Shown here piece after piece: positions 9,543 to 64,000 of a stretch of DNA of 64,000 nucleotides (position 1 is its first letter; each line of letters starts with the position of its first letter). The stretch spans positions 8,732 to 72,731 of the forward strand of contig JAFQPR010000103.1 in assembly GCA_017411605.1 (NCBI GenBank), given 5' to 3'. The notes beneath the pieces are model-generated. The model ran no database searches and had not been told where the DNA came from. It worked only from the letters and a program-made list of their open reading frames with translations. A program made the translations under genes and the position numbers. The DNA comes from Clostridia bacterium. Its GTDB lineage: Bacteria > Bacillota > Clostridia > Oscillospirales > CAG-272.

Positions 9543-11117
9543 TTAGTTTTTAGCAATTTTGACAAAATTACACACCGAAACAAGCTTTTTTCGCATAAAA
9601 ATACAGACTAAAAATAGATAAAAAAGTGCCGAAAGCGCAGCAAATACAAGGAAAATCTTTGGATCGGAATATCCTTTTGTCAAATAATTATACATCAAAA
9701 ATGCAATCCCGATGGAGAAAAACGAAGATATAAATGGAATAAAAATAATACTTGTTAAATCGATCTTTATTTTCAAGCCCCATATCAGGTAAATGGAAGA
9801 AATCAAAAAAGAAATCGAGTAGCCAATTCCTGTTGATATCGGCGCTCCGATTATTCCGTACTTACCTATCAAAAAATATGCGGAAATAAGCTTTACGACA
9901 GCACCTACAGTCATAGACATCAAGGATACTCGTTGGTAAAAAACAGATTCCAATATGCTGTTTATAACGGTTAATAAGCAAAAAGGAATAACCGACACAG
10001 AAAGAAGTGAAAGCAACGGAGCTCCAATCATGGCTGAGCTGTCGTTAAATAAAAGAACAAGAATGTCCTTTGAAAAGAAAAGATAAGCGGCAAAAGCAGG
10101 AAAAGATACCGTTGAAGTTAGGATCAGTACCGAGTGACATATCTCATTAAATTCCGTTTGATTTCCGGATGCGAATTTTTCGGTAAGGTGAGGAATCGAT
10201 GCCGTACCTAAAGGTGTTATCAATGCTATAATGAGATTAAGCATAGGCACGGCAAGTGTCGTAAAATTACCGTATAACGCTATCGCCTCGGAGCTTGACA
10301 TTCCAAAATTCAAAAGTCTTTTCATTATAAGTCCAAGGTCAATGATATTCGTCATTCCCATTATAGCGGAGCTGAGTGTGATAGGTATTGATATTCTAAC
10401 AACCTTTTTAAACAATTCTGATGATTTTATATCACATCTCTGCCCTGTTTTTTCTTCCTTATTCTCACGTTTGGTGCAAATCGATAAAAAAACAACGCCA
10501 ATAAAAGTTCCAAGAGTAACTCCCAGCACAGTAAATGCCGACACCATATGAACGGGCAAGCTTTTTCTCACGGCAAGCAACGCAAAGCTTAGTCCGAAAA
10601 CGAACTTGATCACGCCTTCAATCACCTCGGATATCGCAATATCACGCATTCTATGCCTACCGTTTAAATAACCACGCAAAACACCTGAAGCCGAAACGAA
10701 AGTCAATGATGGCGCAATACAAAAAAGTGAAAAGGAAGATAATGAGTTCCCGATCACATCTGCAAAAAAAGACGAAAACAACATCAAAAGACCGCTAAAT
10801 ATTACTCCGATAATAACGTAGACTTTTAATGACGTTGATAATATTCTGTTTACTGCTTTTTCTTCTCCTTTTGCCATTGCTTCCGTAACAGTTATAGAAA
10901 CAGCCCGCGGTACACCACTCGTACACAACATATAAAAGAAAGCAAAAACAGAATATGCCGAATTGAAGTAACCCATTCCCTCGTCACCCAGAATGTGAGA
11001 TAAGGGCATCTTATATATAAAACCTATAATCTTTACTATTATGACCGAAAGAGTCAGAGCAAATGCTCCGCCAATTAAACTGTCTTTTCTCTTTTCCTCA
11101 TTATTTATTTTAACCAT
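9543..11117 (-). CDS. Polysaccharide biosynthesis/MurJ-type flippase, YabM/SpoVB family
   Basis: VKIIGFIYKMPL..LGDEGMG, LRGYLNG, about 14 TM segments; yabM position upstream of hup. Confidence 0.85.
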   Translation of the reverse strand: MVKINNEEKRKDSLIGGAFALTLSVIIVKIIGFIYKMPLSHILGDEGMGYFNSAYSVFAFFYMLCTSGVPRAVSITVTEAMAKGEEKAVNRILSTSLKVYVIIGVIFSGLLMLFSSFFADVIGNSLSSFSLFCIAPSLTFVSASGVLRGYLNGRHRMRDIAISEVIEGVIKFVFGLSFALLAVRKSLPVHMVSAFTVLGVTLGTFIGVVFLSICTKRENKEEKTGQRCDIKSSELFKKVVRISIPITLSSAIMGMTNIIDLGLIMKRLLNFGMSSSEAIALYGNFTTLAVPMLNLIIALITPLGTASIPHLTEKFASGNQTEFNEICHSVLILTSTVSFPAFAAYLFFSKDILVLLFNDSSAMIGAPLLSLLSVSVIPFCLLTVINSILESVFYQRVSLMSMTVGAVVKLISAYFLIGKYGIIGAPISTGIGYSISFLISSIYLIWGLKIKIDLTSIIFIPFISSFFSIGIAFLMYNYLTKGYSDPKIFLVFAALSALFYLFLVCIFMRKKLVSVCNFVKIAKN

Positions 11118-11146: not shown

Positions 11147-11176
11147 AACTTATTTTTACGGTTAAAAAAATATGAC
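11147..11176 (-). promoter_or_regulatory. sigmaE-like promoter of the yabM/spoVB-like gene
   Basis: GTCATA-N16-AATAAGTT just downstream of the hemZ terminator. Confidence 0.5.
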
Positions 11177-40237: not shown

Positions 40238-42646
40238 TTATTCACCGTGTATAAAACAATACGAATTAAATTGTTTTTTGCGTTTTCCTCTGCCTACATA
40301 ATCTCCTTCTTCTATATAATTATAATAGAATGGTACATCGTAGCTCTCCGGCATTGGCAAGCTACCGTCGGTTTTCATATAGACGTAATCCGCATCGCTA
40401 ATTATAATTTCTTTCGGAAAATGGCGGTCGTTTATTAGAAGAAGCGCAATATCCTTAACATCCTCCTCGGGGCAGCTTTCATTTGCCATCCCCTCAGCAA
40501 AAACATCGTATTTGCAAATAATATGCCTTTTGCAATCACCTTTAGGCTCAGTTCCTTTTATAAAAAAGCCGTAATCGCACCTATCTCCTCTGGGGTCTTT
40601 TTTACACTTTTCTGTAAAACATTTACCCGAATCACAACAAAAATCTCTTTTGATTAAACCGATTTTAGAAAAGCTTTTGATTTCGCTATCTTTTTTATTT
40701 TTTAATACACTATCGTGAACATCCTTCATTATATCGTCCCAAATCTTCAGATGAGTCGGATACACGCTGCCCACAGAACTATCCGAGTTTATATATCCGC
40801 ACCATATACCCGCCGTATAATACGGAGTGTATCCTATAAATAATCTATCCTTATCATCTCCCGAGGTTCCTGTTTTTCCTGCGGTGTCAACTGTGTTTTT
40901 CAAGGTGATTTTTGATGCCGTACCGTTCTCTGTTACGTTCATAAGCATCTGATTCATCACTCGCATCGCTTCTTTTGTAAACAACTCTTTCTCTGCAGGA
41001 GAATTATCAATAATCAAATTACCGTCAGAGTCAAACACCGCAATAAAGCTGCGACCTTCTGTAAACAGTCCTTCGCGAGGAAAAACAGTATATGCCTCGG
41101 TCATGCGCCTAAGACTGACTCCATAGCTTAATTGACCAAGAGCAAGTGGCGCAGCTGCAAGGTCGGTCAATTTATTTCCGTTCTTATCATAGGCACTTAA
41201 TGTCAGTGTATCAAAATTGAAATCATTTTTAAGATTTTTATATATTTTTTCAGCTCCAAGCATTTTATAAAGTCTTATAGCGACGGTGTTTTTGGATAAC
41301 CTGAGGGCATCGTTTACAGTTGTTAATCCATCATAAACCGATGGATAATTCTTAGGGTATTCTACGTAACCGTTACCAATCTTATTAAACTCAATCGGCA
41401 CGTCATCAAATACCGTAGCCCAAGTGATTCTTTTCTCGTTTATTAATGGAGCATATAATGCCAAAGGCTTAAGTGAAGAGCCCGGAGTATGAGGACAGGT
41501 CGCAAGATTAAGCAGACGATTCCCTCTTTTTTCTCCCATCGAGCCCACTATTCCAACAAGATTTCCCGTTACGGAATCACAAATAGCCATTGCATAATTG
41601 AGTCCATAAGCAGTTTTTCCTGAAAAGTTTTTTTCGTTTTCAAAATAATCCTCAAGCTTTTCCTGAATATAAGGATCTTCGGTCGTATATATTTTCAAGC
41701 CGCCGTTTATCAAGAGTGCCTCAGCAGAAGCTCGTGATACAGAGTATTTTTCCGAGATAGCTTCAATAACGTCATTATTTACAGTTTCAATAAACCACGA
41801 ATTGTATTCTTGTTCAACATTTTCTTTTTGTGTTATTTTCAATTCGTCCTTAATAGCTTCTTTATATTGCTCCGCATTGATAACACCGAAATCAAGCATT
41901 GCGAACAAAACGTCATTTCTTTTTTTTAAGCAAGCTTCGGGATTAATTCGCGGATTATACTTAGTCGGCGCATTGGTTATTCCGACAAGGGTTGCCGCTT
42001 CCGAAAGGTTTATTTCGTCTATATCTTTACCGAAATAATTTTCCGCAGCAAAGGAAACTCCTGTAATGTTTTCGCCAAAAGGTATGATATTTAAATATAC
42101 CTCGAGAATTTCATTCTTAGTATGAGTTTTCTCAATATTGTACGCTCTTATTATTTCATTAAACTTACGCTTCAGCGTTACCTCGTTATCTCCACTTATA
42201 TTTTTAATGACCTGCTGAGTTACAGTAGAAGCTCCAAAAGTATTCTTTACGTGAAAAACCGAATTAAAAAGTGCATATAACGTTCTTATAATATCAACAC
42301 CCGAATGCGAATAGAACTTTCTGTCTTCCATGGCTAAAAAGCCATTTATTAAATTTTGCGGAACAGCTTTTAATTCCACCCACCGTTTTTTATTCTCACC
42401 AAGAACAACACTTTTATATAAAACAGGATCGTATTCCGACAAATAGTATGCATTTGCGCCTCTATCGTAATAATACTCGGTTACAGTGCTCCCCTTCGCA
42501 AGAGAAAACATAAGTTCGTCGCTGTTTAAATCTATATTCTTTTTTGAATAAACTACTGTAAATATGACAGCTGCAAGCGCGGTAAGTGAAACCGATAGCA
42601 GTAAAATACAAGTAATAACAATTATTTTTCCATTTCTTTTTTTCAT
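40238..42646 (-). CDS. Class A penicillin-binding protein (transglycosylase + transpeptidase)
   Basis: EDRKFYSH.G, GASTVTQQ, RKFNE and YLN motifs; SSLK, SKN and KTG motifs. Confidence 0.93.
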   Translation of the reverse strand: MKKRNGKIIVITCILLLSVSLTALAAVIFTVVYSKKNIDLNSDELMFSLAKGSTVTEYYYDRGANAYYLSEYDPVLYKSVVLGENKKRWVELKAVPQNLINGFLAMEDRKFYSHSGVDIIRTLYALFNSVFHVKNTFGASTVTQQVIKNISGDNEVTLKRKFNEIIRAYNIEKTHTKNEILEVYLNIIPFGENITGVSFAAENYFGKDIDEINLSEAATLVGITNAPTKYNPRINPEACLKKRNDVLFAMLDFGVINAEQYKEAIKDELKITQKENVEQEYNSWFIETVNNDVIEAISEKYSVSRASAEALLINGGLKIYTTEDPYIQEKLEDYFENEKNFSGKTAYGLNYAMAICDSVTGNLVGIVGSMGEKRGNRLLNLATCPHTPGSSLKPLALYAPLINEKRITWATVFDDVPIEFNKIGNGYVEYPKNYPSVYDGLTTVNDALRLSKNTVAIRLYKMLGAEKIYKNLKNDFNFDTLTLSAYDKNGNKLTDLAAAPLALGQLSYGVSLRRMTEAYTVFPREGLFTEGRSFIAVFDSDGNLIIDNSPAEKELFTKEAMRVMNQMLMNVTENGTASKITLKNTVDTAGKTGTSGDDKDRLFIGYTPYYTAGIWCGYINSDSSVGSVYPTHLKIWDDIMKDVHDSVLKNKKDSEIKSFSKIGLIKRDFCCDSGKCFTEKCKKDPRGDRCDYGFFIKGTEPKGDCKRHIICKYDVFAEGMANESCPEEDVKDIALLLINDRHFPKEIIISDADYVYMKTDGSLPMPESYDVPFYYNYIEEGDYVGRGKRKKQFNSYCFIHGE

Positions 42647-51909: not shown

Positions 51910-52040
51910 ATGGCAAGGTTCGGTATATACGTTATCGCAGACATCAAAGTTAAGGAAGTGCGAGAGGTAAACGATAGCGTCAATGTACCTGATAATAAAT
52001 AGAATTGCGGGCGGAGCTCTAATCTGCCCGTTTACTATTT
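51910..52040 (+). ncRNA. Candidate structured small RNA (or 30-aa sORF transcript) with its own terminator
   Basis: 16-bp stem with G-U pairs that work only on the + strand, a 34-nt purine-rich loop, then a GC-rich hairpin + T-rich tail. Confidence 0.4.
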
Positions 52041-52520
52041 ATCTATCTGCAGCATTGCAACCGCGTGCGCGCTGATTCCTTCTTCCCTTCCCGTAAAACC
52101 CAGATGCTCTTCTGTTGTTGCTTTAACGTTGATTCTGGCTTTATCACAAGATAATGCAAACGAAATATTTTCACGCATTTTTTCGATATGCGGAGCAAGC
52201 TTCGGCTTCTGCGCTATTACGGTCGCATCAATATTAACGATTTTTCCACCCGAGTCCATAAGCATTTTATTTACGCAAGTCAATAAATGCATACTGCTGA
52301 TTCCCTTATATTTATTATCACTATCGGGAAAATGCTTTCCAATATCGCCGAGTCCCAACGCGCCTATAACCGCATCCATCACGGCATGAAGAAGCACATC
52401 TGCGTCCGAGTGACCGAGAAGCCCTAGCGTATGAGGAATCTCAACACCGCCGAGAATCAGTTTTCTTTCGGGCACCAGCTTATGAACATCGTATCCGTGT
52501 CCGATTCTGAATTCCGTCAT
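52035..52520 (-). CDS. ispF: 2-C-methyl-D-erythritol 2,4-cyclodiphosphate synthase
   Basis: GHGYDVH, GHSDADV and KATTEE motifs. Confidence 0.96.
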
Positions 52521-52521
52521 A

Positions 52522-53223
52522 TCATATCTCTCCTTTTCTTTTTAATAGGATGAATTCTGCAAATTCAAGATCATAGCTTGTTGTAATTTTAATATTAGAA
52601 GGGAGTGTTTCGACACAATACGGAGAAATTCCCATATTCTCAAGCAACATATTGTCATCAGTAATTGTTTCGTCAATTATGGGCGCGCAAGCCAATGCGC
52701 GGCTATAGAGATCACGCTCAAAAGCCTGCGGTGTCTGAACAGCTCGAAGATCCTTTCTTGGAACTGTTTCTGCGATCCTTTTACCGTTACATCGCTTCAA
52801 AGTATCGCTTACAGCAACCGATGCCGTCGCAGCCTTATACTCATAAACCGCTTCTGCAACAAGGTCAATTTCATACGGTGTTATAAGGCAACGTGCTGCA
52901 TCGTGTATCATTATATACTCAATATCATCGGATATCTGATAAAAACCGATGGAAGCAGATTCCGCTCGGCATTTTCCGCCTGTTACAATCTTGGAGCATT
53001 TACCAATACTTTGTAACTCATTGTTTACAAAATTCTGCTCTCCATCACGGCAAACAACTACTATTTCCGAAATACTTTTTGCCGCTTCAAACGCCAAAAG
53101 AGTATGTTTCAATATACTTTTTCCATCGATTTCCAGCATTTGCTTTGTCTTATCGGCACTCATTCGGCTTCCCGAACCCGCTGCAAGAACAATTGCGGCG
53201 GTTTTTTTATATTTTTTTTCCAT
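52522..53223 (-). CDS. ispD: 2-C-methyl-D-erythritol 4-phosphate cytidylyltransferase
   Basis: [21 protein letters not shown] and NIKITT motifs. Confidence 0.94.
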
Positions 53224-53226
53224 TTT

Positions 53227-53565
53227 TCACTTCCTGTAATAAACGAAATGAACGGTAATAGTACGTTCTTTTCCGTCTTCAAGCTTGTTTTTGCCCTTAA
53301 TTATAACACCGTCACCACTCATCAAGTAATTTGCTTCAAGATCAGAAACATCAGTAACAAAAAGTCTGTCTCCGGAGGAATCAACAATAAATTCATCCCC
53401 CTTCAAGCACATGGCTCCACCTCTGCCTACTACGTCCTCGTTTCCGTTTCTGTGCTCGGTGACATATTTAACCGGCTGACCGTGAAGCTCACGCGCTCTT
53501 TCAAGCTTGAACGCATAGCTATCCGTAGATTTATTCTTACCAAATATTTTCTTCAAAAAAGACAT
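53227..53565 (-). CDS. Hypothetical 112-aa protein, first gene of the ispDF operon
   Basis: GGAGG RBS, 3-nt gap to ispD, no recognised family. Confidence 0.75.
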   Translation of the reverse strand: MSFLKKIFGKNKSTDSYAFKLERARELHGQPVKYVTEHRNGNEDVVGRGGAMCLKGDEFIVDSSGDRLFVTDVSDLEANYLMSGDGVIIKGKNKLEDGKERTITVHFVYYRK

Positions 53566-53689
53566 ATTGCCTCCACAAACAAATCTCTTTTAGATATTTT
53601 AGCATAAAACGCAAAAAAATGGAAGACTTTTGTTTAAAAATAATTTTTTTGCTGATTTTTAATTATATTTTCCACAAAAACTTCGCTTT

Positions 53690-53850
53690 CCCCACTTTCC
53701 CCCACCACCTCGAAAAAAACTTTAAATTTTTTTCATTTTTTTGTAAAAAAAGTATTGACATTTCCCTTTATATGTATTATAATATTTACAAAGTGGGGCA
53801 TTGTGGAGCAAGATGTAGCAATTTCCCCACAAAATACTTCAAAAGTGGAG
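53690..53850 (+). promoter_or_regulatory. mraZ/dcw promoter with MraZ-binding GTGG(A/G)G repeats
   Basis: Perfect TTGACA-N17-TATAAT (53755-53783). GTGGGG-N4-GTGGAG at 53793-53808, GTGGAG at 53845, and inverted CCCCAC at 53690, 53700 and 53825. Confidence 0.8.
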
Positions 53851-53896
53851 TAGCAAGTTCAAAAGTGTAAAAAAATCTGAGAAAGGAGAGGTTATC

Positions 53897-54319
53897 GTGT
53901 CATTCGTAGGTTCATTTCCCCATTCACTTGATGCAAAAAAGCGTGTTTTCATACCTTCAAAGTACCGCGAAGAGCTGGGAAATGAGTTTTACATAACGAA
54001 AAAGTTTGACCCTTACCTTTCTGTTTACACTGCGCAGGACTGGGAGGAATATTCCGCAAGGATATCCGCGCTACCCGAAGCAGAGGCATATCACTTACAG
54101 GAATACATTCTTGGATCTGCTCAAAAATGCACCCCCGACAGCAGCGGACGAGTCATAATAGATGAAAAGCTGTTGAAGCATGCATCAATCAATAAAAACG
54201 TCGTTTTTGTCGGTGCGGGAAAACAGATTAAAATCTGGGCTGAAGAACTCTGGACAGAACGTGAAAACACTCGTGATCTTGAAAACATCAAGAATCTTAT
54301 GATTAAGTACGGCTTATAA
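53897..54319 (+). CDS. mraZ: Division/cell wall cluster repressor MraZ
   Basis: LDAKKRVFIP and DSSGRV motifs; upstream of rsmH. Confidence 0.93.
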   Translation: MSFVGSFPHSLDAKKRVFIPSKYREELGNEFYITKKFDPYLSVYTAQDWEEYSARISALPEAEAYHLQEYILGSAQKCTPDSSGRVIIDEKLLKHASINKNVVFVGAGKQIKIWAEELWTERENTRDLENIKNLMIKYGL

Positions 54320-54345
54320 TTTTCATCAAGAAAGGAAGCTTCGAT

Positions 54346-55290
54346 ATGTCATCTATCCCCTTTTCTCATGTATCGGTGCTTCTCTCTGAATGCATCGAAG
54401 CGCTTGATATTCGTGACGGTTACACCTATGTGGACTGCACTACCGGCGGTGGAGGCCACTCGCTTGAAATAGCTAAAAGACTCGGTCCGAATTCAAGACT
54501 GATATGCTTCGACAGAGATGAGAATGCAATTACGGCAGCTAAAGAGCGACTTAAAGATCATCTTGATAAGATAACGTTTATAAATAGTAATTTCTCCGAA
54601 CTCGACAAGGTTATTGAAGAGTACGGTATCACCAATTTAGGCGGCGTTCTCGCCGATCTCGGCTGCAGCTCGTTTCAGTTCGACTGCCCCGAGCGCGGAT
54701 TCAGCTATATGCACAACGCAAGGCTTGATATGAGAATGCAGATAGATGCTCCCCTTTCGGCTTACAACGTTGTAAACGAATATTCTGAATCGGCACTCAG
54801 AAAAATCATTTACGACTACGGCGAAGAAAGATTTGCACCGCGAATTGCATCGGCAATATGCAAGGCGCGCGCGGACAAGCCTATTGAAACAACATTCGAA
54901 CTTACCGACGTTATAAAGAGCGCCATTCCCGCTGCAGCAAGAGCGGACGGCCCTCACCCTTCAAAGAGAACATTCCAGGCAATCAGAATAGAAGTTAATT
55001 CCGAACTTGATACGATACGCCCGATGATACAAAGCGCTGCAAAGCATATGGTGTCAAGCGGCAAAATTGTAATTATTTCTTTCCATTCGCTCGAGGACAG
55101 ACTGGTTAAGCTTTCGTACAAAGAGCTTGCATCGGGATGCACATGCCCGAGAGATTTCCCTATATGCGTATGCGGAAAGAAACCGATTTTAAAAGAAACA
55201 AACAAAAAACCAATTCTTCCCACGGAAGAAGAACTAATAAACAATCCACGCTCAAGAAGCGCGAAGCTTCGTGTAGCTGAAAAGATATAA
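54346..55290 (+). CDS. rsmH: 16S rRNA m4C1402 methyltransferase
   Basis: DCTTGGGGHS, LDMRM, SFHSLEDR and NPRSRSAKLR motifs. Confidence 0.97.
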   Translation: MSSIPFSHVSVLLSECIEALDIRDGYTYVDCTTGGGGHSLEIAKRLGPNSRLICFDRDENAITAAKERLKDHLDKITFINSNFSELDKVIEEYGITNLGGVLADLGCSSFQFDCPERGFSYMHNARLDMRMQIDAPLSAYNVVNEYSESALRKIIYDYGEERFAPRIASAICKARADKPIETTFELTDVIKSAIPAAARADGPHPSKRTFQAIRIEVNSELDTIRPMIQSAAKHMVSSGKIVIISFHSLEDRLVKLSYKELASGCTCPRDFPICVCGKKPILKETNKKPILPTEEELINNPRSRSAKLRVAEKI

Positions 55291-55315
55291 ACAGGAATAA
55301 AAGGAGAAAACGTGT

Positions 55316-55780
55316 ATGAACTCGACAATGACATATGAAATGCTTTACAACAACATGGTAAAGAAATTTACTGTTGAAAAAGATAATACAGATTACAACC
55401 TCGGCGACTTTATGCTTATGAAAGCTAAAGCAAAAAAGAATGAAATGGTTGCCGCCGCAAATTCAAATCTCCCCGTATCGCGTGACACCAAAGCAAATGC
55501 TATAACGACCGTTTTCTCGTACGTAAATGATAAGCTTACCGTAAAAGAGGCGCCCGTACGCAATAAAACAATCCGTTCCTTCCCCTTCCGTACCTCCTTC
55601 ACAGCATTTTGCTCTGCGCTCGTAGTTTGCGCACTTGTTGTTTCCTGCTGCTTCTTCGGACTTTCAAAATCCGGTACAGGAAACGATAATATCGTTACCG
55701 TTACGGAAAGCGAACAGGAGTCTACAGAAAAAGACACTCAGGAAACCGCAATGTATACTGCTGATTTCAAAAACAATTAA
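55316..55780 (+). CDS. Single-pass membrane protein in the ftsL position (not recognisably FtsL)
   Basis: AAGGAG RBS; one Cys-rich TM at about aa 95-116; short acidic C-tail. Confidence 0.75.
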   Translation: MNSTMTYEMLYNNMVKKFTVEKDNTDYNLGDFMLMKAKAKKNEMVAAANSNLPVSRDTKANAITTVFSYVNDKLTVKEAPVRNKTIRSFPFRTSFTAFCSALVVCALVVSCCFFGLSKSGTGNDNIVTVTESEQESTEKDTQETAMYTADFKNN

Positions 55781-55790
55781 GGACAAATTC

Positions 55791-55862
55791 TCATAAAAAA
55801 AACAAACCCGTAATATTATGTATTGAGGCTTTTGCCGATACATCGTATTACGGGGTTTTTTT
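55791..55862 (+). promoter_or_regulatory. Long terminator/anti-RBS hairpin overlapped by a sigmaE-like promoter of spoVD
   Basis: About 20-bp stem 55807-55854 + T7 + ATG; TCATA-N16-AATATTAT. Confidence 0.65.
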
Positions 55863-58121
55863 ATGCAAATTTCCACTCAAGGTAAAATAGGACCTTACGC
55901 AAAAACGAGAAAGAGAATAACTGTAACAGCTATTTCCTTTTGCGTTTTTCTTACATTTTTGTTTTACAACTTGTTTTCTCTTCAGTTTCTCGGCTATGAT
56001 TATTACAAAAATAAGGTTTACGACCAGATAACAACAAGCTCAGCTCTCAAAGCTAAGCGCGGAAACATATACGATTCAAATATGAATCTGCTTGCGACCG
56101 AAAAGACCGTCTGGCGAATTTTTGTTTCTTCCCGCGAAATAAAAAAGCAGGAAAAATATCAAAAAAAAGAATACTCGAAAATTATAAGCTCAGGACTTTC
56201 ATCAATTCTTTCTATTGAGTACGAGACTGTTTTAGAAAAGATCAGCAACTCTAACGTACTCGATATTACGCTTAAGAAAAACGCAACTGAAGAAGAGTAT
56301 AAAAAGGTTATTGAGTTCATAAACGACGAAGCGCTTAGTGAAATGGTTTTTACGGAAGCCCAGACGTCAAGATATTATCCCGAAAATACACTTGCAGCAC
56401 ACGTTCTCGGATTCGTTGGAAGCGATCTGCAAGGATTATACGGACTTGAATACTCATATGATGACGTTTTATCAGGGACGGACGGCTATTACCTTTACGG
56501 AAAGGACGCGAACGGAAATTCTCTGCCCTCCGAATATTCGACCTACATTCCGCCAACCGACGGATACAGTCTCGTCACAACCATCGATTCATATTTACAA
56601 CAAGAGCTCGAAAACCAGCTTGAAACGGTAAGAATAAATCATTCTGTGGAAAACAGAGTCACCGGTATAGTAATGGACACAAGCAGCGGAGCTATTCTTG
56701 CTATGGCAACAACGACACCTTTTAATCCTAATTCTCCTTACGAGCTCGATACATTATCATACGCAAAACTCGCAGAATCGGGTTTTCCCGAAGGTTCAGA
56801 TGAGTATAAATTATTAAAAAAAGAGCTTCTTGAAGAAATGTGGTCAAACAAAGCGGTAAGTGAAACGTATGAACCCGGATCAACATTTAAAATTGTCACC
56901 GTTTCCGCCGCGCTTGATGCGGGAACCTCAAAAGTTACAGACAGATTTTCATGCCACGGCTATCTGAGTGTCGGCGGCTGGAATATCAGGTGCCATAAGG
57001 CAGGGGGGCACGGATCGGGCTTTGACCTTGCCTACGGTCTGCAGATGTCCTGCAACCCTACAATGATGACGGTAGCGGAAAGACTTGGGGCTAAAAAATT
57101 TTATGAATACGTTGAACGATTCGGATATTTCGAAAAGACAGGGATAGACCTTCCAAGCGAAGCCGGAACAATATTCCATAAGCCCGAAAACATAGGAACT
57201 ACCGAACTCGCAACAGCGTCATTCGGTCAACGCTTCAAGGTATCAATTATTCGTCAGCTGACTTCAATTGCCGCTGTAGCTAACGGCGGTCAGCTTGTAA
57301 CTCCGTACATCGTTGAAAAAGTCGTTGATTCTGAAGGAAAAGTTATTCGTGAGCACGAAGCCAAAGAAAAAGAGCGCGTGATATCGGCAGATGTTGCACG
57401 CACTGTTTCTGACATTCTTGAAAAGGGCGTCAGCGGAGACGGTGGCGCTAAGAATGCAGGTGTTGACGGTTATAAAATAGCCGCAAAAACAGGTACTTCA
57501 CAAAAATTCGATATCCTTGACGAAAACGGAAACTCTTATCTTCGAATAGGGTCTACCGTTGCTTATTCAATATCCGATGACGGAGGTATAGCAATGATAA
57601 TCGTCGTTGACGAACCCACCTCTGCGGTCAAATACGGAAGTGTTGTAGCCGCACCGTACGTATCGGCTTTTTTAACTAAAGCTCTTCCCTATCTGAATTA
57701 CAAATCCGATGCGGAGATCAAGCATATTACAATTGATAATTATGTTGGAAAAGATATAAACGAAGCTGCAAAGCGCCTCAAGGAATTTGGGATATCATAT
57801 GAAGTTATAGGTAACGGGAAAACCGTTCTAAAGCAGACTCCGACAGAAAACGACAGTATTATATATTCAAATTCGAAGGTCATCCTTTATACCGAAAAGG
57901 ATACGGACTTATATGCGGTAGTACCAAAGGTGCTCGGTTTGGATATATCGGAAGCTAATAAGCTTATCACCAATTCGGGATTAAATATTAAAATTAAGAA
58001 CTTATCCTCGTCTGCTGCGGGCGGAGCCGTTGTAAGCACTCAATCTTTGGCGTACGGAACTGTAGTTCCAAAAAACACAGTGCTGGAGCTTGAAATACTA
58101 TATCTTGATTTTGAGGACTGA
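55863..58121 (+). CDS. spoVD: Class B PBP with 2 PASTA domains, SpoVD-like
   Basis: RGNIYD, YEPGSTFK, IRCH..SCN (Cys pair typical of SpoVD) and KTGT motifs. Confidence 0.8.
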   Translation: MQISTQGKIGPYAKTRKRITVTAISFCVFLTFLFYNLFSLQFLGYDYYKNKVYDQITTSSALKAKRGNIYDSNMNLLATEKTVWRIFVSSREIKKQEKYQKKEYSKIISSGLSSILSIEYETVLEKISNSNVLDITLKKNATEEEYKKVIEFINDEALSEMVFTEAQTSRYYPENTLAAHVLGFVGSDLQGLYGLEYSYDDVLSGTDGYYLYGKDANGNSLPSEYSTYIPPTDGYSLVTTIDSYLQQELENQLETVRINHSVENRVTGIVMDTSSGAILAMATTTPFNPNSPYELDTLSYAKLAESGFPEGSDEYKLLKKELLEEMWSNKAVSETYEPGSTFKIVTVSAALDAGTSKVTDRFSCHGYLSVGGWNIRCHKAGGHGSGFDLAYGLQMSCNPTMMTVAERLGAKKFYEYVERFGYFEKTGIDLPSEAGTIFHKPENIGTTELATASFGQRFKVSIIRQLTSIAAVANGGQLVTPYIVEKVVDSEGKVIREHEAKEKERVISADVARTVSDILEKGVSGDGGAKNAGVDGYKIAAKTGTSQKFDILDENGNSYLRIGSTVAYSISDDGGIAMIIVVDEPTSAVKYGSVVAAPYVSAFLTKALPYLNYKSDAEIKHITIDNYVGKDINEAAKRLKEFGISYEVIGNGKTVLKQTPTENDSIIYSNSKVILYTEKDTDLYAVVPKVLGLDISEANKLITNSGLNIKIKNLSSSAAGGAVVSTQSLAYGTVVPKNTVLELEILYLDFED

Positions 58122-58122
58122 T

Positions 58123-59589
58123 ATGAATATTAAGCAATTGATTCCCGAAAAAGAATTTACGGGAAACCAAAACATTCCCGACATTGAAATTTATAATTGC
58201 ACGTCAAACTATAAAAAAAGAGGAAAGAACACTCTGCTTTTCTTGCTACCCGGTGTAAACTTTGATACATATGAATTAATTCCCTTTTATCTTAAAAGCG
58301 ATGCAGCGGCAATAATAACCGAAAGCAAAGATAAATTCCCTAAAACAAAAATCCCGATAATCGAAGTAAAATCGGCAAGGCGAGCTTATGCATTTGCAAT
58401 GTCCAAAATATCCGAAATTAATTATGAAAAACTGACTTTCATCGGCGTTACGGGAACTAACGGAAAAACCACGACAGCAACGATGATCCGCAAAATACTT
58501 GAGTATAACGGAAAAAGAGTTGGATTTATCGGAACGGGTAAAATTGAATTTGAAGATAAAAAATATATGGATGCTTATTATTCCATGACTTCTCCCGACC
58601 CCGATATTCTCTATCCAATCATAAAGGATATGCAGAGCCATGGCTGCGAAATAATCGTTATGGAAGCTTCGAGTCATGCGCTTACACTCGAAAAGCTTGC
58701 TCCGATAAACTATAAAATCGGAATATTTACAGGACTATCACACGAGCATCTTGAGTTTCACGGAAGTATGGAAAAATACTACCTTGCTAAAGAAAAACTG
58801 ATAAAGAATTGCGAGTTGGCAATAATAAACTTTGACGATCCGTGGGGCAAGCATCTTTATGAAAAATACGAATCTAAAGCAACCGGTATCGGAGTTGTCT
58901 GGAGAAGCGACGTAAGCGCTACCGAGGTTGAAAACTACGGACTTTGCGGAATAGGCTACATTTATAAAGGGAAAAACTTTATTACACGAATAAAACTTCC
59001 TATCCCGGGATTATACAATATCTATAATTCAATGCTTGCATTCGATGCTGCATATAAGCTGAATATTACGCCTAAGGATATTAAGCTTGCTTTCGAAAGC
59101 ATTGACCATATAGACGGCAGGTGCGAATGTATTTTTGATGAAATAACCGTCATAATAGATTATGCGCACACGCCTCTGGCGCTTGAAAGTGTACTGAAGA
59201 CAATTATCGCGGATAAGGATTATTTACAAAAATTAATTCTTGTTTTTGGGTGCGGCGGTGAAAGAGATCCGTCAAAGCGCCCAATTATGGCAAAGATAGC
59301 GGAAAAATACGCGGATAAAATTATAATTACCAATGATAATCCAAGAAGAGAAGACGAGGGCGCGATAATCGACGCTATTGTATCGGGATTCACTCAAAAA
59401 AAATATGCCGTGATCAGGGATCGTGCGGAAGCTATAACCTATGCGGTTAAAAGCGCTTCCATCGGCGACATCGTGCTAATCGCGGGAAAGGGTCACGAGA
59501 AGTATATTATCGACAAGGACGGATATCATCATTTTGATGAAAAAGAAATAATAACCGACGCCTTAAAGCTTCGTAAATGCGAGGAATAG
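58123..59589 (+). CDS. murE: UDP-MurNAc-dipeptide--meso-DAP ligase
   Basis: GVTGTNGKTT, MEASSH, DYAHTP, DNPR (DAP specificity) and AGKGHE motifs; start ATG 58123. Confidence 0.93.
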   Translation: MNIKQLIPEKEFTGNQNIPDIEIYNCTSNYKKRGKNTLLFLLPGVNFDTYELIPFYLKSDAAAIITESKDKFPKTKIPIIEVKSARRAYAFAMSKISEINYEKLTFIGVTGTNGKTTTATMIRKILEYNGKRVGFIGTGKIEFEDKKYMDAYYSMTSPDPDILYPIIKDMQSHGCEIIVMEASSHALTLEKLAPINYKIGIFTGLSHEHLEFHGSMEKYYLAKEKLIKNCELAIINFDDPWGKHLYEKYESKATGIGVVWRSDVSATEVENYGLCGIGYIYKGKNFITRIKLPIPGLYNIYNSMLAFDAAYKLNITPKDIKLAFESIDHIDGRCECIFDEITVIIDYAHTPLALESVLKTIIADKDYLQKLILVFGCGGERDPSKRPIMAKIAEKYADKIIITNDNPRREDEGAIIDAIVSGFTQKKYAVIRDRAEAITYAVKSASIGDIVLIAGKGHEKYIIDKDGYHHFDEKEIITDALKLRKCEE

Positions 59590-59590
59590 T

Positions 59591-60967
59591 ATGCGAATAA
59601 AGCTTGATATACCTATCTCAGTCTATGAAATAGCTGCTTATTTACCTTCAATAAAAATCAGCGCAATGAAAGCAGGCCTAATAGATCATATTTCTACAGA
59701 TACAAGAGAGCTCGAAAAAGGTGACCTGTTCTTTGCTTTACCGGGAGATAATTTCAACGGCGAGGACTTTATTGCTGAAGCAAAAAGAAAAGGAGCTCAT
59801 ACAGTTGGCACCCGTTTAAAAAACGCAGATTATTGCGTTAAGAACACCTTATCCGCACTGAGCTCATTGGCAAATCACTATAAAAACAAGTTGCAAATCA
59901 GAACAACGGTTGCAATTACCGGTAGCGTTGGAAAAACTACAACAAAAGATATGACACTAGGCTTGCTTTCAAAAAAATACAGGGCTCACGGCACGTACAA
60001 AAATTACAATAACGAGATTGGCGTTCCGCTTACTCTTTTATCCGCAAAAAAGGATACCGAAATACTTGTTATCGAAGCCGGAATGAATCATATGGGAGAG
60101 CTTGAAAAGCTTTCGAGGTGTATCGTGCCGGATATATCGGTAATTACAAAAATAGGATCATCACACATAGGTAATCTCGGAAGCAGAGAGAATATTGCAA
60201 AAGCAAAAGCTGAGATTTTTCTAGGCATGGAAAAGCCCTATGCTTTAATTCCCTACGGCGAAAAGCTCCTGGATAAATACTCTTTTGCAAAAACTGTATC
60301 TGCAGACGGTTCCGATGCTGACTTTTCCCTCTCCGTTAAAAGCACCCACCCCGGTAAAACCGTATTCGATTATAATTCCAAATATAATTCTCTGCGTTCA
60401 GCAGAGATCAAAGCATCTTCCGCGCATATTCCGGAATGCCTTGCATTCGCCATCTCGGTCGCATCAATGCTGAATATGACGAACGATGAATTGTATTCTT
60501 CCGTTTCTACACTTGAACTTACGGAAAAATCAAAAGTATTCAAAATCGGCAGCTTAACTATATTGGACGATTCCTATAATTCTTCCTATGAATCGGTAAA
60601 AATGGCACTGAAAACTCTCAATTTACACAAAGAAAAACGTAAAAGCGCTGTTATCGGAGATATTCTTGAGCTTGGAAATGAAACAGAGAGAATACACTTC
60701 GAATTGGGCAAACTGGCTGCAGGAGCAGGACTGTCAAAGCTTTACGTTTTCGGAAAAAACGCAGAAATTGTAAAAGCAGGTGCCGTAAAAAACGGTATGA
60801 CTCAAGATGCGGTTTTTGTTAACGTAGACACCGACTATCCCGAAACGACCGCAAATCAGATAATCAATAATTCTTCTAATGAAACGATTCTTTTTAAAGC
60901 ATCACACAATCTGAAGCTCGAACGAATTATCGATATCCTAAAAGTTAAATTAAGCGAGGCAAATTGA
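59591..60967 (+). CDS. murF: UDP-MurNAc-tripeptide--D-Ala-D-Ala ligase
   Basis: ITGSVGKTTTK, NNEIGVP, DDSYN and GDILELG motifs. Confidence 0.92.
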   Translation: MRIKLDIPISVYEIAAYLPSIKISAMKAGLIDHISTDTRELEKGDLFFALPGDNFNGEDFIAEAKRKGAHTVGTRLKNADYCVKNTLSALSSLANHYKNKLQIRTTVAITGSVGKTTTKDMTLGLLSKKYRAHGTYKNYNNEIGVPLTLLSAKKDTEILVIEAGMNHMGELEKLSRCIVPDISVITKIGSSHIGNLGSRENIAKAKAEIFLGMEKPYALIPYGEKLLDKYSFAKTVSADGSDADFSLSVKSTHPGKTVFDYNSKYNSLRSAEIKASSAHIPECLAFAISVASMLNMTNDELYSSVSTLELTEKSKVFKIGSLTILDDSYNSSYESVKMALKTLNLHKEKRKSAVIGDILELGNETERIHFELGKLAAGAGLSKLYVFGKNAEIVKAGAVKNGMTQDAVFVNVDTDYPETTANQIINNSSNETILFKASHNLKLERIIDILKVKLSEAN

Positions 60968-61951
60968 ATGGCTGATGAAAACATAGTATTTTATTTATTA
61001 ATTTTTGTTCTTGCCTTTTTTGTTACGGCTGTAAGTGTCAGAAGTCTTATTCCTAAACTGAGAAAGAGCGCAGAGCAACCGATATACGAAGAAGGGCCGA
61101 TCTGGCATCTTAAGAAACAAGGCACTCCCACAATGGGCGGAATTGGATTTGTCATAGCTTTAACTGTTTCATTTTTGATTTCAGCGCTATATCTTTTCGC
61201 AAAACAAGAATACTATTTTGCTACTTCTCTGCTCCTCACCTTGCTCTTTGCGCTCTCAAACGCTTTGATAGGAATTATTGATGACTACGCAAAAATAAGA
61301 AAAAAAGAAAACGCAGGTCTTACACCTATTCAAAAGCTCTTGCTCCAAGCAATAGTTGCAACTATTTTTCTAATAGCAAGAAGGTTGATACTTTTAACAT
61401 CAACAACAATAATTTTCAGTTTCGGTACAATTGAGCTCGGTATTTTCTATTACCCTATCGCATTAATAATGCTTCTCGGAACAGTTAACTCAGCAAATTT
61501 GACCGATGGAGTTGACGGAATCGCCTCGGGCGTTGCTTTTGCGATTGGTATATCTCTTGCTTTCTTATCCTCGGGTGCGAATTACGAGGTCGAATTTATA
61601 GCATTCACCGTTATGGGTATCGCTGTTGCATTTCTGATATTTAACCTTCATCCCGCAAAAATATTTATGGGTGATACGGGATCTCTGCTTTTCGGATCTC
61701 TTGTAGCTGCGGCTTGTACCTCACTTGGCAATCCTCTCATTATTCTATTCGTTGGCGGAGTCTATCTTGTCGAAAGTCTTTCGGTTATTCTTCAAGTTGT
61801 ATTTTTTAAATTTACCAAAAAAAGGCTTTTTAAAATGGCGCCGTTTCACCACCATCTTGAGAAATGCGGATGGGCAGAAAACAAAATTGTTATTTGGGCA
61901 ATAATTATGACACTCGTCTTCTCCCTTCCTGCTATCTTCTTATTTGTATAA
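60968..61951 (+). CDS. mraY: Phospho-MurNAc-pentapeptide transferase
   Basis: GTPTMGG, NLTDGVDG, FMGDTGS and MAPFHHH motifs. Confidence 0.96.
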   Translation: MADENIVFYLLIFVLAFFVTAVSVRSLIPKLRKSAEQPIYEEGPIWHLKKQGTPTMGGIGFVIALTVSFLISALYLFAKQEYYFATSLLLTLLFALSNALIGIIDDYAKIRKKENAGLTPIQKLLLQAIVATIFLIARRLILLTSTTIIFSFGTIELGIFYYPIALIMLLGTVNSANLTDGVDGIASGVAFAIGISLAFLSSGANYEVEFIAFTVMGIAVAFLIFNLHPAKIFMGDTGSLLFGSLVAAACTSLGNPLIILFVGGVYLVESLSVILQVVFFKFTKKRLFKMAPFHHHLEKCGWAENKIVIWAIIMTLVFSLPAIFLFV

Positions 61952-63118
61952 ATGAAAAAAACTTTTTTACATCATTCATCTGATAAAGAGATATTTTTAA
62001 AGGGAAAAATACCTTTATTCGATATCCCGTTTCTTATACTATCGTTACTTCTTTCCGTTTTTGGAAGCCTCATGGTTTTTTCTGCGGGAAGCGCATACGC
62101 AGAGTTCCGATACGACGACCCGTTCTTTTTTACAAAAAGACAGATTTTGTGGCTGATCTTAGGAATAGCCATAATGCTCGTTGCGTCAAGGATCAAGCCC
62201 GAGTTTTATTTTAAAATCACACCGTTTCTGTACGGCATAACTCTCATACTTTTACTTTTGGTGCTCGCCGTAGGATTCGTCGGTAACGGAGCTCAGCGTT
62301 GGATAAGCATCGGACCTTTGACGATACAGCCCTCGGAGATAGCAAAAATGACTATAGTAATGATGCTTGCGTATTATTTCTCTAAATGGGGCAAAAAAGC
62401 GCTAGATATCAAAATTAAAAAGAACGCATTCATCTACGGAACATTCATACCTTGCATTATAATGGGTATTCCGATAGTTCTTGTTATGCTCCAAAAGCAT
62501 CTGTCCTGCATAATTATTCTCGGCTTGATAGGACTTATAGTTATTACCGTATCGGGAATCGACACAAAATACATAGCGGGCTTTACCGCGCTCGGCGGCG
62601 TCGGTGTCACTTGTCTTGCATTGTTTACCGACTATACCAAGGACAGAATAACCGTCTGGCAAGCTCCCGAAAAATATAAGCTGACAGGAGGTTGGCAAAC
62701 GCTTCAAGGTCTTATGGCGATAGGCTCGGGCGGTCTTTTCGGACGTGGATTCGGCAAATCGATTTTGAAATACTGCTATGTTTCTGAGCCTGCAAACGAT
62801 ATGATTTTCGCAATTCTCTGCGAAGAGCTTGGTTTTTTGGGAGCGCTGTTTATCATTCTTTTGTTTGCGCTTTTGGTTGTTCGCGGATATAAAATATCCG
62901 TTCTTGCTGAAAACGTTTTTGAAAGACTCGTGATTTTCGGAGTATGCACGAAAATTGCGCTTCAGGTACTTCTAAATATAGCCGTTGTTACAAACACGAT
63001 CCCGAATACCGGAATTTCACTTCCGTTTTTCAGCTATGGCGGTTCATCGCTGATAATGATATTTTTTGAAATCGGTATGATACTATCGTTTTCACGCAAT
63101 GCTAAAATCACAAAATAA
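61952..63118 (+). CDS. ftsW: SEDS glycosyltransferase FtsW/SpoVE
   Basis: GAQRWI, QPSEIAK, IGSGG and LPFFSYGGSS motifs. Confidence 0.9.
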   Translation: MKKTFLHHSSDKEIFLKGKIPLFDIPFLILSLLLSVFGSLMVFSAGSAYAEFRYDDPFFFTKRQILWLILGIAIMLVASRIKPEFYFKITPFLYGITLILLLLVLAVGFVGNGAQRWISIGPLTIQPSEIAKMTIVMMLAYYFSKWGKKALDIKIKKNAFIYGTFIPCIIMGIPIVLVMLQKHLSCIIILGLIGLIVITVSGIDTKYIAGFTALGGVGVTCLALFTDYTKDRITVWQAPEKYKLTGGWQTLQGLMAIGSGGLFGRGFGKSILKYCYVSEPANDMIFAILCEELGFLGALFIILLFALLVVRGYKISVLAENVFERLVIFGVCTKIALQVLLNIAVVTNTIPNTGISLPFFSYGGSSLIMIFFEIGMILSFSRNAKITK

Positions 63119-63134
63119 TTATAGGAGCGCCTAT

Positions 63135-64000
63135 ATGAATATAGTATTTTGCGGCGGGGGTACTGTGGGACACATATCACCCGCGATAGCAATAGCCAAG
63201 GAATTTGAAAAACGAAATCCAGATTGCAAAATAGCTTTTATCGGAAGAGCTTCGGGCGCAGAAAACGAAATAATAAAAAAGAACGGCTACAAGCTTTATG
63301 AAATACAGGTTTCCGGTCTTATAAGAAAATTGACTCTTAAGAACTTAGGAGTCATTAAAAAACTGTTCACGGCGGAAAAGGAATCAAAGAAAATTTTAGA
63401 GGACTTTTCGGCAGATGCCGTCATTGGTACCGGAGGATACGTTTGCTTTCCCGTAGTGCGCGCGGCAAAAAAGCTTGGAATTTTTACCGCGATACATGAA
63501 TCAAACGCTTCACCGGGGCTATCCGCAAAGCTTCTCTCAAAAAAATGCGATATAGTTTTTTACGGTACAAAAACGGATAACAACGATAAAAACTCGATTT
63601 ACAGCGGAAATCCCGTAAGGGAAGATTTTTACAAAATACAAAAAAGTGACGCAAGAAAAAAACTCGGTATTCCTTCGGATAAGCTTTTCGTTCTTTCGGT
63701 TGGCGGAAGCATTGGAGCATGGGCGCTGAATGATGCATCTCTTGAAATGATGAAAGATTTTTCTTCAAAAAGAAACGATATTTTACATTGTCATTCGACG
63801 GGAAAGCGTTATTTTGAAAGCGTAAAAGAAACCCATCCTGAGCTTTTCCCCGCTAAGAACGGCTGTTCCGTAGTTCCTTTTATAGACGAAATGCCTCTAT
63901 ACCTTGCGGCTGCGGATATAGTAATAAGCAGATGCGGAGCTATGACTCTTTCTGAAATTTGCGCCTCCGGCTCCGCATCAATTCTTATTCCTTCTCCAAA
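63135..64000 (+). CDS. murG: MurG glycosyltransferase (runs off the right edge)
   Basis: Manual translation MNIVFCGGGTVGHISPA...GTGGYV...HESN...GNPVR...GGSIGA. Confidence 0.93.
   Translation, partial: MNIVFCGGGTVGHISPAIAIAKEFEKRNPDCKIAFIGRASGAENEIIKKNGYKLYEIQVSGLIRKLTLKNLGVIKKLFTAEKESKKILEDFSADAVIGTGGYVCFPVVRAAKKLGIFTAIHESNASPGLSAKLLSKKCDIVFYGTKTDNNDKNSIYSGNPVREDFYKIQKSDARKKLGIPSDKLFVLSVGGSIGAWALNDASLEMMKDFSSKRNDILHCHSTGKRYFESVKETHPELFPAKNGCSVVPFIDEMPLYLAAADIVISRCGAMTLSEICASGSASILIPSP

Follow-up and report, generated by a model that had tools for sequence, protein, structure and literature searches.

A terminator-type hairpin carrying a candidate sigmaE-class promoter in its 5′ arm precedes the SpoVD-like gene of an uncultured Clostridia lineage

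Results

A hairpin and a promoter-like motif overlap in the spacer upstream of a penicillin-binding protein gene

The window analyzed here is a 64,000-nucleotide (nt) stretch of a 73-kb contig (JAFQPR010000103.1) from a Clostridia bacterium of the Oscillospirales (CAG-272), whose genome is represented by a 2.8-Mb bin of 104 contigs that is 81.8% complete. From position 53755 onward the window carries genes of the dcw (division and cell wall) cluster on the forward strand, in the order promoter, mraZ, rsmH, an open reading frame (ORF) in the ftsL slot, an 82-nt spacer (55781-55862), a gene for a SpoVD-like class B penicillin-binding protein (PBP), murE, murF, mraY, a gene of the SEDS (shape, elongation, division and sporulation) family, and murG. 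Our subject is the 82-nt spacer, in which a terminator-type hairpin and a promoter-like motif share part of the same sequence.

The hairpin lies on the coding strand at 55807..55854 and starts 26 nt past the stop codon of the ftsL-slot ORF. Its stem has 20 pairs in blocks of ten, seven and three, formed by a 5′ arm at 55807-55829 and a 3′ arm at 55834-55854 around a TTTT loop (55830-55833); a run of seven T (55856..55862) follows directly, and the next base begins the ATG of the PBP gene (55863). The only run resembling a Shine–Dalgarno (SD) sequence is GGGG at 55852..55855, 7 nt ahead of the ATG and mostly within the 3′ arm, where three of the four G are paired to CCC at 55807-55809. Folding of 55807-55862 gave -25.6 kcal/mol (z -5.91), with none of 200 shuffled sequences as stable, and folding of the 100 nt from 55781 to 55880 gave -34.4 kcal/mol (z -7.56), an upstream A-run here pairing with the U-run. 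A stable stem-loop, a directly adjoining U-run of at least five and conserved pairing (see below) are all present, and in its anatomy the hairpin corresponds to an intrinsic terminator. These features had been described in an original prediction made from the letters of the window, and the coordinates it gave, including those of the largely paired GGGG, hold throughout.

The promoter-like motif, TCATA-N16-AATATTAT, consists of a -35-like TCATA at 55791..55795 and a -10-like AATATTAT at 55812..55819, both on the forward strand, and the latter falls inside the 5′ arm of the hairpin, as had been predicted. A transcription start placed by geometry, 6-8 nt past the -10 element, would lie at 55825..55827, where G55825 aligns with a G that is invariant among relatives, and a transcript beginning there would retain no more than 3 nt of the 5′ arm. 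RNAs with 5′ ends at 55824, 55826 or 55828 folded no better than shuffled sequences (z 0.1-1.3), which bears out the expectation that a transcript from approximately 55826 would lack the 5′ arm and with it the hairpin. In its loose form the motif has 39 matches on both strands of the 64-kb window, a chance level; its significance comes from conservation in relatives rather than from the window alone.

The motif and the hairpin are conserved together in close relatives

We compared the spacer across 15 relatives, comprising 14 loci that include the spacer among 18 metagenome loci whose PBP is 53-71% identical to that of the window, together with a same-genus genome (L010; PBP 51% identical). 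In the resulting alignment of 16 sequences, which we refer to as A1, the A-T core of the -35 element and the ATA of the -10 element are invariant, the C and A flanking the -35 core are at least 90% conserved, and the two elements are separated by 16 nt in 16/16 loci, despite the sequence between them varying freely. All 15 relatives have a -35 core of the form (C/A)AT(A/T), or (T/G/A)(C/A)AT(A/T) with the leading base included, followed after 16 nt by a -10 element of the form (A/C)ATAnnn(T/G); the ATA-N16-AATA motif of the original prediction is conserved in relatives as ATA-N16-(A/C)ATA, and the prediction thereby passes the conservation test that it had set for itself. The sigmaE consensus has an ATA core at -35, a spacing of about 16 nt and cATAnnnT at -10, and we read the motif as a putative sigmaE-class mother-cell promoter, with a sigmaK or a weak sigmaA promoter as alternatives. 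One relative (L015:1299-1430) carries the promoter-like motif twice, owing to a spacer segment of about 64 nt that is duplicated in tandem. Between the stop codon and the -35 element of the window lies GGACAAA (55781-55787), which we take to resemble a SpoIIID box; SpoIIID represses spoVD in Bacillus subtilis. This heptamer is not conserved in the 15 relatives and is probably a chance occurrence.

The position of the hairpin relative to the motif is likewise maintained. In all 13 relatives that could be parsed by script, the 5′ arm begins at -3 to +1 nt relative to where the -10 element ends and is thereby locked within 4 nt of it, and the hairpins, with folding energies of -10.8 to -29.6 kcal/mol, are followed by runs of five to seven T; the two remaining loci (L010 and L052) show the same layout as judged by eye. 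Aligning the orthologous spacers for covariation, as the original prediction proposed, we found that 93.8% of cells in the relatives' stem are paired and that 4 of 13 pairs have changed on both sides (9 cells), a score reached by 0/500 shuffles, with slid controls pairing at no more than 54%. The stem sequence is largely shared, with compensatory changes, and since these sequences are related we treat the covariation as supportive only. At one stem position U-G is the commonest pair, which fits an RNA of the forward (coding) strand. The hairpin of the window differs from those of its relatives in sequence, is longer, and extends back over the -10 element, but it keeps the same place and the T-run, and for this reason we regard the structure as a conserved feature.

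One element of the original prediction did not carry over to the relatives, namely that the hairpin locks translation of the PBP gene by sequestering its ribosome-binding site. The window does resemble known SD-sequestering hairpins, in that the one SD-like run it has, 7 nt ahead of the ATG, pairs within the 3′ arm; unlike in a conserved sequestering design, however, a free SD is found 10-20 nt past the T-run in the 13 parsed relatives. Because of this, we read SD occlusion in the window as a probable by-product, specific to this lineage, of the shortening of the spacer.

The same motif class precedes sporulation genes

Next to conservation at the locus itself, the distribution of the motif across the genome bears on its identity. 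A strict form of the motif, scanned at -130 to -10 of 2089 ORFs in this genome, occurs upstream of 17, including spoIVA (TIGR02836, 577.5 bits), sipL, spoIIIAH, two SpoVB/MurJ-like flippase genes and the PBP gene, and close variants precede spoIIID and sigK; another of the 17, an FtsK/SpoIIIE-family gene, was left unclassified. Applied to other genomes, the same regular expression matches upstream of the PBP gene in 19/29 other genera (2.95 per kb) and upstream of spoIVA in 17/30 relatives (4.5 per kb), compared with a background of 0.135 per kb over the remainder of these loci and, for intergenic DNA of this genome, 0.55 per kb. This corresponds, for the PBP gene in the 29 other genera, to an enrichment of 22-fold over the rest of the loci and approximately 5-fold over the intergenic background. 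The motif of the spacer therefore matches one found upstream of sigmaE-regulon orthologues in the same genome, which agrees with its original description as sigmaE-like. A candidate spoIIGA-sigE pair lies on contig C82, and the genome also encodes sigK, spo0A and spoIVA.

The arrangement at the PBP gene differs from that at other genes with the motif. One of the SpoVB-like flippase genes lies within the window on the reverse strand (9543-11117; TIGR02900 210.9 bits, under cut-off) and is preceded by TCATA-N16-AATAAGTT at 11147-11175 on the same strand, with a terminator hairpin upstream of the motif. As spoIVA and this SpoVB-like gene both show the usual order, terminator and then promoter, the nested order at the PBP gene appears to be a distinct conserved design. 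The second SpoVB-like gene, on contig C70, carries GCATT-N16-CATATAGT.

A proposed terminator with a nested sigmaE-class promoter

With moderate confidence in the mechanism as a whole, we propose that the spacer combines an intrinsic terminator with a sigmaE-class promoter nested in it. A sigma-70-type site, TTGACA-17-TATAAT, lies at 53755..53783 on the forward strand; it matches the consensus at 12/12 positions, is the sole such site in 52000-64000, and is presumed to be the vegetative promoter of the mraZ operon. The hairpin (55807-55854, followed by seven U) would end most mraZ-rsmH-ftsL transcripts begun at this sigmaA promoter. Transcripts that read through would keep the hairpin, and in this organism the weak SD of the PBP gene (GGGG) would thereby be buried, with murE and later genes retaining ribosome-binding sites of their own. 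The putative sigmaE-class promoter, with its -10 element in the 5′ arm, would start RNA at approximately 55825-55827, and the resulting mRNA, without the 5′ arm, would escape termination, expose the SD, and carry PBP-murE-murF-mraY-ftsW-murG. In growth, the net outcome would be a low level of lipid II gene expression fed by read-through, and in sporulation a separate boost of the SEDS/class B PBP pair and the lipid II genes, so that the downstream cell-wall genes would probably be separately switchable during spore formation.

Contigs assembled from an RNA library of a strain approximately 96% identical cover 53805-54632, 54634-54836 and 55323-55873, and none lies over the PBP-murG block; the last of these crosses the hairpin and stops 11 nt past the T-run, and a second run covers the whole stretch. 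These data come from one study and consist of assembled contigs, in which ends, strand and level are unreadable; the library may also include DNA, and we count the data for neither side.

Several observations weigh against the proposed mechanism. The hairpin is missing from the sites listed by a simple terminator scan of 52000-64000 (11 sites vs 12.5 expected), owing to the internal mismatches of its stem. The first base of the window's -10 element is A and not the C of the sigmaE consensus, with A also in 11/15 relatives and C in 4/15. The relatives are kin, and several of their spacers are near-identical, so that counts among them overstate independence. Presence of the motif shows no clear link with that of spoIVA (10/17 spoIVA-positive vs 3/7 spoIVA-negative genomes), a gene that was not found in 7/40 family genomes sampled. 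SigE and SpoIIGA themselves stay below their curated cut-offs (336 bits vs 339 and 128 vs 209.55, respectively), and a search of the 81.8%-complete genome did not find spoIID. In Clostridioides difficile, moreover, spoVD is assigned a SigH promoter and not a SigE promoter (PMC7438776, Table 3). Three further objections each lend themselves to a particular alternative.

The first is that 10/17 strict matches in this genome precede genes unlinked to sporulation. Together with the commonness of the loose motif (39 matches in the window; intergenic density 0.55 per kb) and the canonical terminator anatomy, this would suit a scenario in which the hairpin is a terminator and 3′-end stabilizer of mraZ-rsmH-ftsL only, the motif is inert AT-rich spacer, and the downstream genes are served by read-through. 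Inert sequence would hardly be expected to preserve its core and an exact 16-nt spacing in 16/16 loci, to be enriched upstream of the PBP gene across 29 other genera, and to stay locked to the 5′ arm in 13/13 loci, and we consider this scenario quite unlikely.

The second objection is that the same bases can be read as a sigmaA promoter, with TTCATA/CTCATA at -35, 18 nt, and a -10 of the form TAnnnT (TATTAT/TAAGAT). A weak vegetative promoter of this kind would restart transcription past the terminator, the PBP and mur genes would be expressed in growth, and the locus would amount to an ordinary terminator-promoter junction. The -10 hexamer has T and A at positions 1 and 2 and T at position 6 in 15/16 loci (that of L058 ends in G), single-copy murF and mraY need expression in growing cells, and clear sigmaA-like promoters are present in the spacers of the distant relatives L011 (TTGACA-17-TATCAT) and L017 (TTGACT-17-TATAAT). 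The conserved -35 core, however, is CATA and not TTG, the two leading T are absent in 5/16 loci, the window's -35 hexamer matches TTGACA at only 3/6 positions, and it is the 16-nt spacing of the cores that is fixed. The occurrence of the same motif class ahead of spoIVA, sipL and spoIIIAH in this genome, and of spoIVA in other family members, also points away from sigmaA, and we regard the vegetative reading as unlikely.

The hairpin takes a different position in other genera

The third objection arises from the wider family. In at least eight other genera (loci L011, L014, L016, L018, L023, L025, L026 and L027) the spacer holds a different hairpin, with conserved stem bases (TGAGRGT ... ACTCTCA) and four T behind it, which lies 10-35 nt downstream of a sigmaE-like -10 element and would be inside the promoter's own transcript. 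For this reason, escape from the terminator by a truncated arm would be lineage-limited and not universal. This arrangement raises an alternative in which the hairpin serves mainly as a leader of the promoter's own transcript, either as an mRNA-stabilizing stem-loop or as an attenuator, and any block of upstream transcription is secondary; in those eight or more genera the hairpin would be transcribed whole, and in L011 it is the sigmaA-like promoter that precedes such a hairpin. By contrast, the window and the 15 relatives closest to it have a stem whose start lies no further downstream than the end of the -10 element, and the promoter's own transcript therefore cannot hold the 5′ arm. Rfam at gathering thresholds returned no matches in 20 loci (104,356 bases, the window locus L009 included), the TGAGRGT ... 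ACTCTCA hairpin likewise had no Rfam match, and no alternative antiterminator fold was evident in the 82-nt spacer. As an account of the window, a leader role in the first place seems improbable to us. The spacer hairpin may still have a second role, for example as a leader element in other genera, where the TGAGRGT ... ACTCTCA hairpin may represent a leader or attenuator of the dcw PBP gene that has no name as yet.

A pattern search for TGAGRG...ACTCTC in 61 genomes gave matches in 22, of which only 5 lay upstream of the PBP gene, and a reversed control matched about as often, which marks the search pattern as non-specific. The possibility that the TGAGRGT hairpin belongs to a repeat family was rejected, as the hairpin is bound to the PBP locus. 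A SigH reading was also considered for GAATA runs in the spacers of distant relatives, which at first resembled SigH -10 boxes like that of C. difficile spoVD, and was set aside; most of these runs fit better as sigmaE-type -35 elements, and the window has no GAAT.

Lipid II gene expression during growth

The original prediction carried the mechanism further and suggested that the lipid II genes may be dedicated to sporulation, with paralogues, read-through or a wall-reduced lifestyle as options for the vegetative cell; in its strong version the block would be complete, with murE-murG and lipid II synthesis confined to sporulating cells and growth either wall-reduced or dependent on paralogues. 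The tight packing on which this was based is real: murE and murF are separated by 1 nt, murF and mraY, like mraY and ftsW, by 0 nt, and ftsW and murG overlap. The hairpin is strong and has U7 behind it, and the interval from there to murG yielded no convincing sigmaA promoter; across 52000-64000, sites matching at least 9/12 consensus positions occur at chance level (30 vs 28.1 expected). Nor do the last 400 nt of the PBP gene hold a conserved sigmaA-like promoter, a site matching at least 10/12 positions being present in only 1/12 loci.

The search for second copies of the downstream genes gave a divided answer. A second MurE-subfamily ligase is present on contig C80 (60967-62418; L041:1468-2919), scoring 348 bits against TIGR01085, above its cut-off; it is 29.7% identical to the dcw MurE and adjoins an ATP-grasp-like ORF. 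At the edge of contig C95 (40065-41399; L040:5832-7367) a second C-terminal fragment of ftsW (80.7% amino acid identity to the window copy) is followed by a second murG (51%) and then ftsZ, a duplicate that may reflect bin or strain heterogeneity or may be real; among relatives, murG has a single match in 28/30 genomes, is split across contigs in one and is absent in one. By contrast, murF and mraY gave no second match by tblastn in the 81.8%-complete genome. Cells without lipid II would have no use for the class A PBP, murC and murD that are present, and the murE SD would permit translation from read-through RNA. Intrinsic terminators, moreover, are rarely complete. A role of the lipid II genes in sporulation only, and with it a wall-reduced vegetative cell, is thus not supported, and we consider the complete block highly improbable. 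Because no conserved sigmaA-like promoter is found in the 3′ end of the PBP gene, the most economical vegetative source of murE-murG is read-through from the mraZ promoter, and we infer that growing cells would express these genes by this route.

A related question is which synthases would use this lipid II. The genome encodes one class A PBP and one class B PBP; the former, with Transgly and Transpeptidase domains, is encoded on the reverse strand of the window at 40238..42646 and is the only class A PBP found. In a same-genus relative (99% complete) we found one SEDS protein, one strong class B PBP match and one class A PBP, plus one weak 18-bit match, and no second SEDS/class B PBP pair was found in this genus. 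A conceivable though doubtful reading for this genus is that its sole SEDS/class B PBP pair is, together with murE-murF-mraY-murG, insulated by the terminator from vegetative transcription and driven by the nested sigmaE promoter, and that the single class A PBP builds the vegetative wall, septum included, on a read-through supply of lipid II. Elsewhere in the family the inventory is split: one SEDS protein is encoded in 13/30 genomes and two in 17/30. An earlier impression that family members have no class B PBP besides this one (one match each at E <= 1e-30) was refuted by a Pfam search, which found a second in approximately half of the genomes. The division of the family with respect to SEDS proteins, class B PBPs and spoIVA would provide a natural set for testing whether division and sporulation functions co-vary.

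Discussion

The locus can be viewed as a conserved, testable, sequence-level signature of sporulation-specialized dcw synthases in an uncultured gut lineage, in which the terminator that would end the vegetative mraZ operon has a promoter of sporulation type locked to its 5′ arm. If this interpretation is correct, a single 80-nt element would place one gene block under two regimes, and it would help to predict from sequence which Clostridia reserve their dcw synthases for spores; a further question it would pose is by what means a terminator lets through the supply of essential lipid II genes.

A sigmaE-driven spoVD gene located after a terminator in the dcw cluster would be of a known kind; what would set the present locus apart is the nesting of the promoter in the terminator arm. 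In B. subtilis, the cortex genes spoVD, spoVE, spoVB and spoIVA are co-regulated under sigmaE control (PMC517825). The present genome is similar in having a SpoVD-type class B PBP gene in the dcw cluster after mraZ-mraW-ftsL, preceded by a putative sigmaE-class promoter, and in sharing the motif among the PBP gene, the SpoVB-like gene and spoIVA. The vegetative pbpB of B. subtilis reportedly lies between ftsL and spoVD, with spoVD a separate unit and murE having its own expression, as Daniel et al. are said to have described in 1994. Here, unlike in B. subtilis, pbpB is lacking, the putative promoter shares sequence with the terminator instead of coming after it, and murE-murG continue with no interruption.

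C. difficile offers a second comparison. One study describes its dcw SpoVD and SpoVE as sporulation-specific, with spoVD expressed at sporulation onset, and a class A PBP as driving vegetative division, and reports that many Clostridia have no FtsW/FtsI orthologues (PMC10693644). The present locus likewise belongs to a clostridial dcw cluster with a SEDS/class B PBP pair of the SpoVE/SpoVD type, in a genome with one class A and one class B PBP. The two differ in that a SigH-type promoter is assigned in C. difficile and a sigmaE-class motif is found here, and in that C. difficile keeps RodA-PBP2. Should the doubtful single-class A PBP reading hold, this genus would take the C. difficile arrangement to a further extreme, lacking even a RodA-PBP2 elongasome.

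Intrinsic terminators within operons are a further point of reference, as these too consist of a stem-loop and a U-run on the coding strand between co-directional genes, with downstream expression dependent on read-through. Unlike in these, the -10 element here lies inside the 5′ arm, so that one segment would both stop and start transcripts. In a limited literature search we found no description of a promoter nested in a terminator in this way, and one may still be in print.

Genes flanking the spacer

The gene order rsmH, ftsL-slot ORF, PBP gene and murE is found in 28/29 family loci, the exception being L017, which has no rsmH match, and also in those metagenome loci that are of sufficient length. 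In the window all of the cluster genes are on the forward strand. mraZ (53897-54319) scores 88.2 bits against the MraZ profile and rsmH, also known as mraW (54346-55290), 385.3 bits against Methyltransf_5. The ftsL-slot ORF (55316..55780, stop codon at 55778-55780) encodes 154 amino acids (aa) and has no Pfam or NCBIfam match by profile search; in relatives the slot is occupied by a variable ORF of 100-350 aa.

The PBP gene (55863..58121) encodes 752 aa with PBP_dimer, Transpeptidase and two PASTA domains, and its ATG at 55863 is the only in-frame ATG, GTG or TTG ahead of the membrane segment. SpoVD is its best family, and both the domain set and the dcw location are as expected for SpoVD; because its score against TIGR02214 (480.9 bits) is below the curated equivalog cut-off of 688, we name it SpoVD-like and not SpoVD. 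Scores against the pbp2 and FtsI models were 280.4 and 137.9 bits, respectively.

The murE gene (58113..59589 including its SD) has its own ribosome-binding site, GAGGA at 58113-58117 followed by N5 and the ATG at 58123, which lies 2 nt past the last base of the PBP gene; its product scores 432.9 bits against NF001126, above the cut-off of 373. It is followed by murF (59591-60967) and mraY (60968-61951), both identified by profile match and single-copy by tblastn, and then by the SEDS gene of FtsW/SpoVE type (61952-63118), which scores 323.2 bits with the ftsW model and 300.4 bits with the spoVE model, both under cut-off. The murG gene starts at 63099 and is cut by the end of the window and of the contig, and murC, murD and folC are located elsewhere in the genome. 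MraZ is thought to autoregulate its own operon, and the 12/12 sigma-70 match 114 nt 5′ of mraZ is of a strength that is unusual for an operon with such proposed autoregulation.

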